Shown here: piece after piece, positions 36,901 through 39,900 of the stretch | Numbering within the stretch: the first letter of the stretch is position 1 | Layout of the letters: the number at the start of each line of letters is the position of its first letter | Origin: a plasmid | Assembly: GCF_988242995.1 (NCBI RefSeq) | Contig: NZ_OZ547044.1 | Length of the DNA stretch: 64,000 nt | Strand: one strand, 5' to 3' | Position numbers: made by a program

Positions 36901-39900
36901 ACCCCAAACCAATCTACATAGGTCAACTATGGGTAATACCCCAGGTTTCGACCAAAAGTAGTTCTTGTGTGGGAAACAGTCCAAGCTTAATGGGGGCTTA
37001 TCCAGCCTCACTTTTTACAGCTTTCAATCACATTAATTATGTTCAGAAAGGCCCTCATTGCCCTAAAGAAAAAAAATGCAGCCATGAAAATAAGGAATAA
37101 TTGAGATACAACTCCTGCTAAATCATGGTTGCTACCAGCCACTGATAGCAACGTAAATAGTAATGCAAGCGAAAAATGTAAGGCGATTGTAGTATTTGAA
37201 TTCATGTATATCCCCTTATGTATAGGACTGAGGCCATCCGCAAATTTTCACTATCGCGAAGTTGTTGCCTCGATATAAAAGGTGTTACCACCCTGAACAA
37301 GATAACAAGATAACAAGATAACAAGATAACAAGATAACAAGATAACAAGATATTATCGTTGTTTCGCTTCTGCGATTAATCTGGATATCTCTGTTTTTGA
37401 TAAACTTTTTAGTGCCTCTACCGCTGCCCTGACTACGTCAGAACGATTCACTCTGCTTTTACCTGAAATCATTTCACCCGTTATAAGATCATCAATGTCT
37501 TTTAAGTTTTCTTCAAAAAAGGAAATGCTCACTGGTTTTGCTTTACTTACAGCCAATGGTCTCTCTGAAGTCACTTTGGTATTATCAATACCAGCAGTAC
37601 CACCGTTAATAAACGCTGCCTCATCACGAGATGGAGTATTTGCTCTATTTCTCACAGAATAACCTCTTTAACTAACGATTCGATTTCTTGTTGTGCTTTG
37701 TCATTTTGCGTTTCAAAAATTGTCATTGATTCTGCCCAGGCATCTCGATGCGCTTTTCGATCACAAACTCGGGAACTAGCCAGACGCATTTCAGGATAAT
37801 CCTTGAGTACGTCAGCTGCCTGATTTGCTTCATTGACAAACATGTTCGTGGGCGTCATGTTTAAAACGAGATATCCCCGGACGTCCTCATTAAAATCTTT
37901 TGCTGCTGTAAAAACAGAGCATGTATGAGGCACTACATCCAGGTCCATCTGAGAAGGCCGCAACGGAGAAATGAATACGTCAGCGGCCATCAACCCACTA
38001 CGCATTTCTGCACTGTCGCGGCCAGCACAGTCTGCGATGACAAAGTCATAAGATTTCTCGTGTTCCTTTAGCATGGCTTTGATGTTGCCTGTTGCGCCAG
38101 TAACCGGAATATGGGGAAGATCTTCAGGACGATTGTTGTACCAGGTCAATACAGATTTCTGGTCATCTGCGTCGACAATGATCACTCGATTGCCCAGTGA
38201 CATCAGATACGCAGCTATAGATACCGCCAGTGTACTTTTACCAACCCCACCCTTTTGACTACCCAATACTATTATCATCATAGCCTCATATTAAGTTGTT
38301 AAGTTAACAACTTAATATTGCCAAACAGGCGACAATATTGCAATTTCTTTATTAAGTTAATATCTTGTTAAGTTGTTAACTGTGTGATTTATAACTGAAT
38401 TGTTTTTGTATCTTAACAAATTAGTAAGATGTTAGGATGACAAGATAACAAGATAACAAGATAACAAGATAACAAGATAACAAGATGGCAAAGTGGTGCC
38501 TTTATCCGAAATCCCCATAGAACCACATAATGCGGCTTTCAACTCCAGGCTACCTTTAGGGAGGGTAGTATCAACCAGTTATGACCGCGTGAAGCAAAAA
38601 GTGGGGCGTAGTGGGAAGCCTTTGAATCTTCGGTGTGTCGAAGTGGGGAGTCGGTGAGACAAATTTGGTAAAAGGTGGTGAGAAGCGGGATAGCTTCTCA
38701 CTTCTATCCAAAAAGGTGTGTTGAAGTGGGAAGGTGCGTAAGTATATACAGATAAAAACACACATTTAACAGGTTCTCATCCCGCTACAACACACCTATT
38801 AAGACGTTTAAGGCGAGGCTTCCCCCTACAACACACCTATCAAGATGTTTAAGAAGAGACCTCCCGTTTCAACACACCTTAATCGCGTTGCTTTCCCGTT
38901 TTGACACACCTTATACAGCTGTTCCTGGTTTCAGATTTGCTGAGCGACGGTGGATCAGAATGAAAGTCTCTTTACCTTTTTTGGTGATGCTGTGGTCAAG
39001 GTACCCAATATCCTGCAACTGCTTGAGGGCCAGTTTAATGATACGGTTCTGTTCCTTTACCGGAGAGAGCAATGAGAGCCTGTCTCGTATCCGTTTGAAA
39101 GATATGGGGACTGGGTTCGTAGGCAGGCTTTCGATGAAAGTATACAGGGCCTGAGCTGCTTCCTTTCGGGTTAAAGCGTTTATCGGCTTATGTCGTAGCA
39201 GAACAGTGTAATCAGTTTGGTAGAGCTCCCATAGTCGCTGATCAGCTTCAAGTTCCACCAGGTCGTTTGCAAAATCCAGTTCACCTGTCTTAAGCAAACC
39301 TGTTACGGAAACTTTTTGAAGGCCCTCTGAATCGCTACGGGTAAAGGTAATGGTCTTGCCACGTATCCTGGTCAAAGCTTCTGAAATACTTTTTCTAAGA
39401 CGGGAATCGAATCTCTTAGACTCAAAGCGGCACATTCCAGCAAACTCATGAAAAGTAAGCTTAATGCTGTTGGTTTTTAAACCGTACTTACTGAAAGCTT
39501 CTATGATACCGACCCATACCTTGAAGTCGATGGCCATACTCAACCGTTCACCGGTTATACGAATATCGTCGTACCCCTCCCGCCTTGAGAATTCCAGATC
39601 CTTGAGAACAGAGGTCGCATCGATTGATGTTCTGGTGCCCTTTGCAGGCCTGCTTGAGGGAACAAAAACATTTAATCTCATCAGGGCTACAGGCTGAACT
39701 GTGGCCTTACTTGTGACGGTGAGTTTATTGTTAACACTTTCACAATCTGGACCTATAACCTCGCCAATATAAACATTCTCATTCATATAGTTATATCCAT
39801 TCATAGCATATGATCGATATGTGCCTAAATATTAACTATTTCCCGTTTCGACACACCTTTCTTCCCGATTCTACCCACCCTTACCCCGTTTTGACACACC

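Follow-up and report, generated by a model that had tools for sequence, protein, structure and literature searches.

A probable pESBL-type ParABS cassette flanked by two octamer arrays in a Klebsiella-type plasmid

Introduction

The closest described relative of the locus reported here is parAB-parS of pESBL-EA11, an IncI1 plasmid of E. coli O104:H4 (Genes 2020;11:1207, PMC7602700). In that paper, Tn-seq located an instability region of pESBL at parAB, two ORFs were identified as stability determinants, and a mini-F lacking sop became more stable once it carried the locus. Foci of GFP-ParB (Hp7, 100 aa) were seen in the presence of pESBL and not in its absence. EMSAs revealed seven or eight discrete ParB complexes on seven direct or 4+4 inverted octamers; binding was cooperative, at about one unit per octamer, and both direct and inverted repeats were accepted. 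Octamer arrays were found both upstream and downstream of parAB. The authors classed the locus as type Ib, named pB171 and pSM19035 as likewise carrying dual arrays, and stated that in sequence pESBL ParB is not homologous to any known ParB protein and its octamers are unlike known parS sites. Deletion of par did not visibly destabilise native pESBL, as loss is masked by conjugative re-transfer and by the killing of cells that no longer carry the plasmid. The upstream site of pB171 par2, parC1, has a second role in transcriptional regulation (PMC7602700).

We analysed a 64,000-nucleotide stretch of plasmid DNA (NCBI RefSeq assembly GCF_988242995.1, contig NZ_OZ547044.1), hereafter the window, in which a small parA and its partner gene lie between two arrays of one 8-bp unit. 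An initial annotation of the window had taken centromere repeats on one side only to be the usual arrangement. For this class of system the generalisation does not hold, since pESBL, pB171 par2 and pSM19035 are all cited as double-array systems in PMC7602700. Our literature search for this octamer or for the Klebsiella copy of the locus found nothing besides that paper.

Results

ParA and ParB of the window are close relatives of the pESBL proteins

The cassette comprises two genes and two arrays:

37652-38281, minus strand: parA, a small Walker-type partition ATPase of 209 aa with the deviant Walker A motif KGGVGKS
37353-37655, minus strand: parB, an ORF call for a 100-aa protein, putatively centromere-binding by analogy with pESBL
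37296..37352, no strand assigned: downstream (parS-distal) array, 3' of parB, with six perfect GATAACAA units and partial units at both ends
38436..38486, no strand assigned: upstream (parS-proximal) array, 5' of parA, with GATGACAA, five perfect GATAACAA units and a partial unit

RefSeq places the parA start at the second Met (38278), which gives a protein of 208 aa. In ParA, Walker A begins at residue 8 and KGGVGKS occupies residues 10-16. Pfam analysis revealed MipZ, AAA_31 and CbiA domains, and NCBIfam ParA_partition matched over the full length, though under the model cut-off. The closest solved relative is ParF of TP228 (4dzz/5u1g; E 4.8e-14, residues 6-207 aligned to 7-202). These matches bear out the small ParA that had been proposed between the arrays. 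The DNA-binding extension that type Ia ParA/SopA proteins have at their N-terminus is absent from the protein, and its matches to SopA and RepA models were confined to the P-loop. It is identical to pESBL-EA11 ParA (WP_000587689.1) at 203 of 208 residues (97%). Older annotations label ParA "cobyrinic acid a,c-diamide synthase".

parB begins with a GTG and overlaps the stop-codon end of parA by 4 nt, an arrangement that suggests translational coupling; parA and parB probably form one translationally coupled operon on the minus strand. The product shares 83 of 100 residues with pESBL ParB (WP_001245884.1, Hp7/O3K_25817), which is of equal length; most of the 17 substitutions fall in the linker. 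The N-terminal tail of ParB (MRNRANTP..FINGG) is conserved; a variable linker joins it to a C-terminal domain that is predicted to be ribbon-helix-helix with one extra helix. In an alignment of 30 homologues, the N-terminal peptide is invariant at N3, R4, F15, I16, G18 and G19. The segment K-A-K-P-V-S-x-S, corresponding to the ribbon, is also invariant in these 30 sequences and is followed by conserved helices with R68, N70, R71, S72 and D73.

Searches of Pfam, NCBIfam and PDB (the last with both the single sequence and the 30-sequence profile) gave no meaningful match for ParB. The hits obtained, LisH_WDR26, aCcr1 (E 0.0017) and N-WASP (E 0.62), were at chance level; in Pfam, nothing at E ≤ 1 was found beyond two such matches, and no ParG or ribbon-helix-helix family was among them. 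The fold was therefore taken from predicted structures, which indicate a ribbon-helix-helix protein. Type Ib systems use a ribbon-helix-helix dimer as centromere-binding protein, and the structure predicted for ParB is of this kind. The partner had been described as RHH-like and ParG-like: the fold agrees with the predicted structures, and membership of a known sequence family finds no match in Pfam or PDB. In public plasmid records (e.g. CP008791.1, OW969799.1), parB is mostly listed as "hypothetical protein" or is missing altogether.

Two octamer arrays flank the operon

Tandem Repeats Finder detected a period of 8 in both arrays, with 7.1 copies and 100% match downstream (37296-37352) and 6.4 copies and 97% match upstream (38436-38486). 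In a unit-by-unit map, the downstream array has six perfect GATAACAA units (37301-37348) followed by a partial GATA, and the upstream array (38436-38483) has GATGACAA and then five perfect GATAACAA units, with a partial GAT after them. The downstream-array unit reads TTGTTATC on the coding strand. Both arrays have identical orientation, one on each side of the minus-strand operon. The initial annotation gave their coordinates and orientation correctly and its count of 6.5 downstream units was right; its count of 5.5 upstream units was one short, because the degenerate first unit had not been counted. A search for the two-unit 16-mer (≤1 mismatch) revealed 10 sites in the window, none of them outside the two arrays, whereas 0.01 would be expected from shuffled sequences. 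Outside the arrays, the exact octamer occurs once in the 64 kb window, at 33322.

The locus therefore has a ParA orthologue (97% identity), a ParB orthologue (83%) and GATAACAA arrays on both sides, and these features place it in the pESBL family. It is very probably a type Ib ParABS cassette of that family, carried on a Klebsiella-type IncF backbone beside an iteron replicon. That the arrays are centromere sites, as had been suggested, is supported by analogy from the experiments on the near-identical pESBL locus (PMC7602700).

A conserved palindrome overlaps the putative parA promoter

Three further elements lie between parA and the upstream array:

38315..38343, minus strand: putative promoter-like element, TTGCAA (38343-38338), 17-nt spacer, TGG-CAATAT (-10 = 38320-38315)
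38288..38318, no strand assigned: perfect 15+1+15 palindrome (31 bp), ATATTAAGTTGTTAA-g-TTAACAACTTAATAT, a candidate operator
38357..38380, no strand assigned: three phased degenerate octamer-like units, TTAATATC TTGTTAAG TTGTTAAC, in the orientation opposite to that of the arrays

The TTGCAA-17-TGGCAATAT element and the overlapping palindrome lie directly 5' of parA (38288-38343). The palindrome is composed of two inverted near-octamers (TTGTTAAs) between the -10-like element and the parA ribosome-binding site, and the -10-like element overlaps one palindrome arm. The regulatory regions of four loci (the window, pESBL, IncK and the Salmonella locus L011) were aligned. TTGCAx, TGG and CAATAT were invariant in all four, 17 nt apart, with a varying spacer between them; the palindrome was likewise kept in all four, with one symmetric double substitution in Salmonella. 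From this alignment we infer a promoter with an overlapping operator before parA, most likely bound by ParB. No mention of the 31-bp palindromic operator was found in the available excerpts of PMC7602700 or in the other literature search results. In Erwinia tracheiphila (L005, 1818-1865), a different 8-mer, TTAATAAG, is repeated six times at the palindrome's position, directly 5' of parA.

A consensus promoter scan did not report the conserved promoter-like element and found no terminators. The scan was set aside: it returned two weak sites, one of them over the parA start codon, versus 4 expected by chance. We also considered whether the whole spacer between parA and the upstream array is octamer-derived. 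Its 154 nt contain 8 octamer-like sites (≤2 mismatches), compared with 3.3 ± 1.7 in shuffles, and 25 of 2000 shuffles reached 8; this idea was rejected in view of such modest enrichment.

The cassette lies between a recombinase gene and an iteron replicon

The following features surround the cassette:

36127-36921, plus strand: tyrosine recombinase of ~260 aa with a Phage_integrase domain, downstream of parB and convergent with it
38911-39804: Rep3-family initiator, on the upstream side of the cassette
38596-38918 and 39836-39950: iterons of ~21-22 bp with core TCCCGTTTCGACACACC, on both sides of the Rep3 gene
40198-41915: ORFs for a Y-family DNA polymerase and umuD, by annotation of the matching record L001
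42131-43105: parM (StbA_N, E 3e-63; ParM, E 3e-44)
43108-43779: stbB, a Plasmid_stab_B protein of 223 aa (Plasmid_stab_B, E 1.5e-49)

Because this recombinase gene is paired with parB in distant homologues too, it suggests a conserved partition-plus-multimer-resolution module. A second partition system had been noted at 42131-43779, and the domain matches confirm it as an actin-like ParM with a Plasmid_stab_B adaptor. In the matching plasmid L001, ccdAB lies farther along. The contribution of parAB beside parM/stbB and ccdAB could be small, because deletion of par in pESBL gave no visible destabilisation.

The double array is widespread and its unit number varies

A megablast search found the locus in 1423 PLSDB plasmid records, mainly from Klebsiella, Escherichia, Salmonella and Shigella. 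Klebsiella IncFII/rep_cluster_1418 plasmids matched at 95-100%; a second group, E. coli and Shigella plasmids including IncK and IncI1, matched at ~87%. More distant loci, at 57-75% ParB identity, were fetched from Erwinia, Citrobacter, Salmonella, Pantoea, Enterobacter and metagenomic contigs. Across ParB homologues of 57-88% identity, arrays with an 8-bp period adjoin parAB in every case, mostly on both sides. Array orientation is inverted in two of the loci (L009, L013). The Salmonella locus L011 has TTAGTATC repeated 10 times upstream and TTGTTATC repeated 3-4 times downstream (~700-790, 1810-1840), and variant units were found in Pantoea (TTATTATC, L012) and in L014 (GATGTTAA). The distant homologues L007 and L011-L014 have unit variants that are sometimes unlike on the two sides, while the ParB ribbon residues are invariant. 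A tyrosine recombinase gene also neighbours parB in distant homologues (L006, L011-L014).

Array lengths were compared in L001 (8102-8181/9269-9316), L015, L016, L017, L002 and L004. The downstream (parB-distal) array had 6, 8, 10, 16 or 19 units in near-identical plasmids, and the upstream (promoter-side) array had 5-10 units in close relatives; both varied in whole 8-bp steps. Among the matches listed, match lengths differed from the query by multiples of 8 bp in nearly every case, as fits a drift in unit number. These findings are consistent with drift by replication slippage. Array-to-array recombination deleting parAB was considered and rejected, as the partial matches showed insertion sequences instead: IS2 inside parB in E. 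coli pKL53-L (L019), IS903B in place of parA in Enterobacter pRHBSTW-00333_2 (L020), and parB kept with parA disrupted by an IS3-like element in Salmonella Infantis p1045028_1 (L018). All three decayed cassettes keep the parB-distal array and the neighbouring recombinase gene.

The two arrays in the window are near-identical in unit and orientation, and unit numbers change freely among near-identical plasmids, as would be expected if one array were a recent, functionless duplicate produced by recombination or slippage. Such an origin is nevertheless highly improbable: two-sided arrays are found in pESBL and IncK and in Erwinia, Salmonella, Pantoea and metagenomic homologues with ParB identities as low as 57%, and some homologues have two arrays that differ in orientation or unit variant, unlike the products of a recent duplication. 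The two-site design is therefore evidently old. Judged from these alignments, the double array is an ancestral part of the cassette and not a recent duplication; the duplication by recombination that had been suggested earlier does not survive as a recent event, since homologues with 57-88% ParB identity are also two-sided.

A different division of labour is that the arrays (the upstream one at least) serve mainly as operator sites for parAB autoregulation and that one array only is the centromere. The double role of parC1 in pB171 par2 provides a precedent, and of the two arrays in distant homologues it is the upstream one that varies more (its units are degenerate or variant in L007, L011 and L012), whereas the downstream array is usually canonical. 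However, ~95 bp separate the upstream array from the putative -35, so that it is clear of the core promoter; a separate conserved palindrome is located exactly at -10/+1; and in pESBL, arrays of either kind are bound by ParB in vitro (PMC7602700). We consider a mainly regulatory role unlikely. Least probable of all is that the upstream array is an origin or iteron accessory of the neighbouring Rep3-family replicon (38596-39950) rather than a partition site. The first iteron is only ~110 bp from the array; however, the iteron sequence TCCCGTTTCGACACACC is unrelated to the octamer, and in IncI1 and IncK plasmids the octamer arrays accompany parAB with a Y-family polymerase gene next upstream and the replicon ~13 kb away. 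Flanking centromere arrays of a type Ib cassette are the reading that we prefer.

Discussion

Proposed mechanism

If the arrays of the type Ib cassette act as centromeres, the predicted dimeric ribbon-helix-helix ParB would read the octamer TTGTTATC/GATAACAA through its beta-ribbon. By analogy with pESBL ParB, about one unit would bind per octamer, in a cooperative manner, and loading on both flanking arrays would give rise to the partition complex. The 8-bp period would rotate successive dimers by ~274 degrees, such that they would form a spiral round the DNA. The flexible, conserved N-terminal tail of ParB may contact ParA-ATP bound non-specifically to the nucleoid and stimulate its ATPase, and the plasmid would then move along a ParA gradient by which copies become spaced apart, as in ParF/ParG and pB171 par2. 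Autoregulation would most likely operate through the 31-bp palindrome over the -10 region, and the upstream array may provide a high-affinity nucleation site. Both arrays are ancestral, with unit numbers that drift by slippage.

Significance

The partition module and its dual arrays are already known from pESBL, and the discovery value of the present locus is small. The additions made here are a predicted ribbon-helix-helix fold for ParB, a conserved palindrome as candidate operator, the unit-number polymorphism and the distant unit variants, together with the suggestion that several plasmid groups share one centromere. A very common family of Klebsiella/Enterobacteriaceae resistance plasmids has, as its Walker-type partition system, the cassette first characterised in an IncI1 plasmid from an outbreak. 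For annotation, parB can be described as a predicted ribbon-helix-helix centromere-binding protein, and the arrays as putative parS by analogy.

Identical GATAACAA units and an invariant DNA-reading ribbon of ParB are common to IncI1, IncK and Klebsiella IncF-type plasmids. Resistance plasmids that are compatible in other respects may therefore cross-react at partition, becoming incompatible or mis-positioning one another. We propose tentatively two possibilities, with somewhat less than an even chance: one is such partition-level cross-talk between plasmid groups, the other a three-site design of the locus, with two ParB-loading arrays and a separate dyad operator of inverted near-octamers. 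Plasmids of different replicon groups with this centromere would then be predicted to disturb each other's segregation. If such cross-talk occurs, the variable unit number (5-19) could tune the competition.

Comparison with known systems

The omega protein of pSM19035 is a ribbon-helix-helix protein that binds heptad repeats. The pSM19035 delta/omega system resembles the window locus in having such a protein, contiguous 7-8 bp direct or inverted repeats and several sites round the par genes. It differs in that its units are 7 bp versus 8 bp in the window, its host is Gram-positive and omega acts as a global regulator of the plasmid; no similarity in sequence to the window locus was found. Among characterised ATPases, the window ParA is nearest to ParF of TP228, which is a distant relative and not an orthologue. 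For ParB, no match to the ParG family was detectable, and its likeness to TP228 ParG is at the level of the predicted fold.

pB171 par2 (parC1-parA-parB-parC2), compared here by architecture from its literature description only (PMC7602700 and PMC4270457), is like the window locus a type Ib system in which two repeat clusters flank parAB and a ParM/ParR-type system is co-resident. In the window, by contrast, the actin-type system lies on the far side of the rep and polymerase V genes, at a distance of ~4 kb, and has no site in common with parAB.

The locus is most similar to that of pESBL. The pESBL arrays have 7 units upstream and 10 direct plus ~4 inverted units downstream, whereas the downstream array of the window has ~6.5 units, all direct. 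The backbones also differ: the window is of the Klebsiella-type IncFII/rep_cluster_1418 and its cassette abuts the replicon iterons, whereas pESBL is IncI1 and its cassette adjoins a Y-family polymerase gene. The two loci have in common the gene order, the protein sizes (ParA 208 aa, ParB 100 aa), the GATAACAA consensus, the two-sided arrays and the palindrome before parA.
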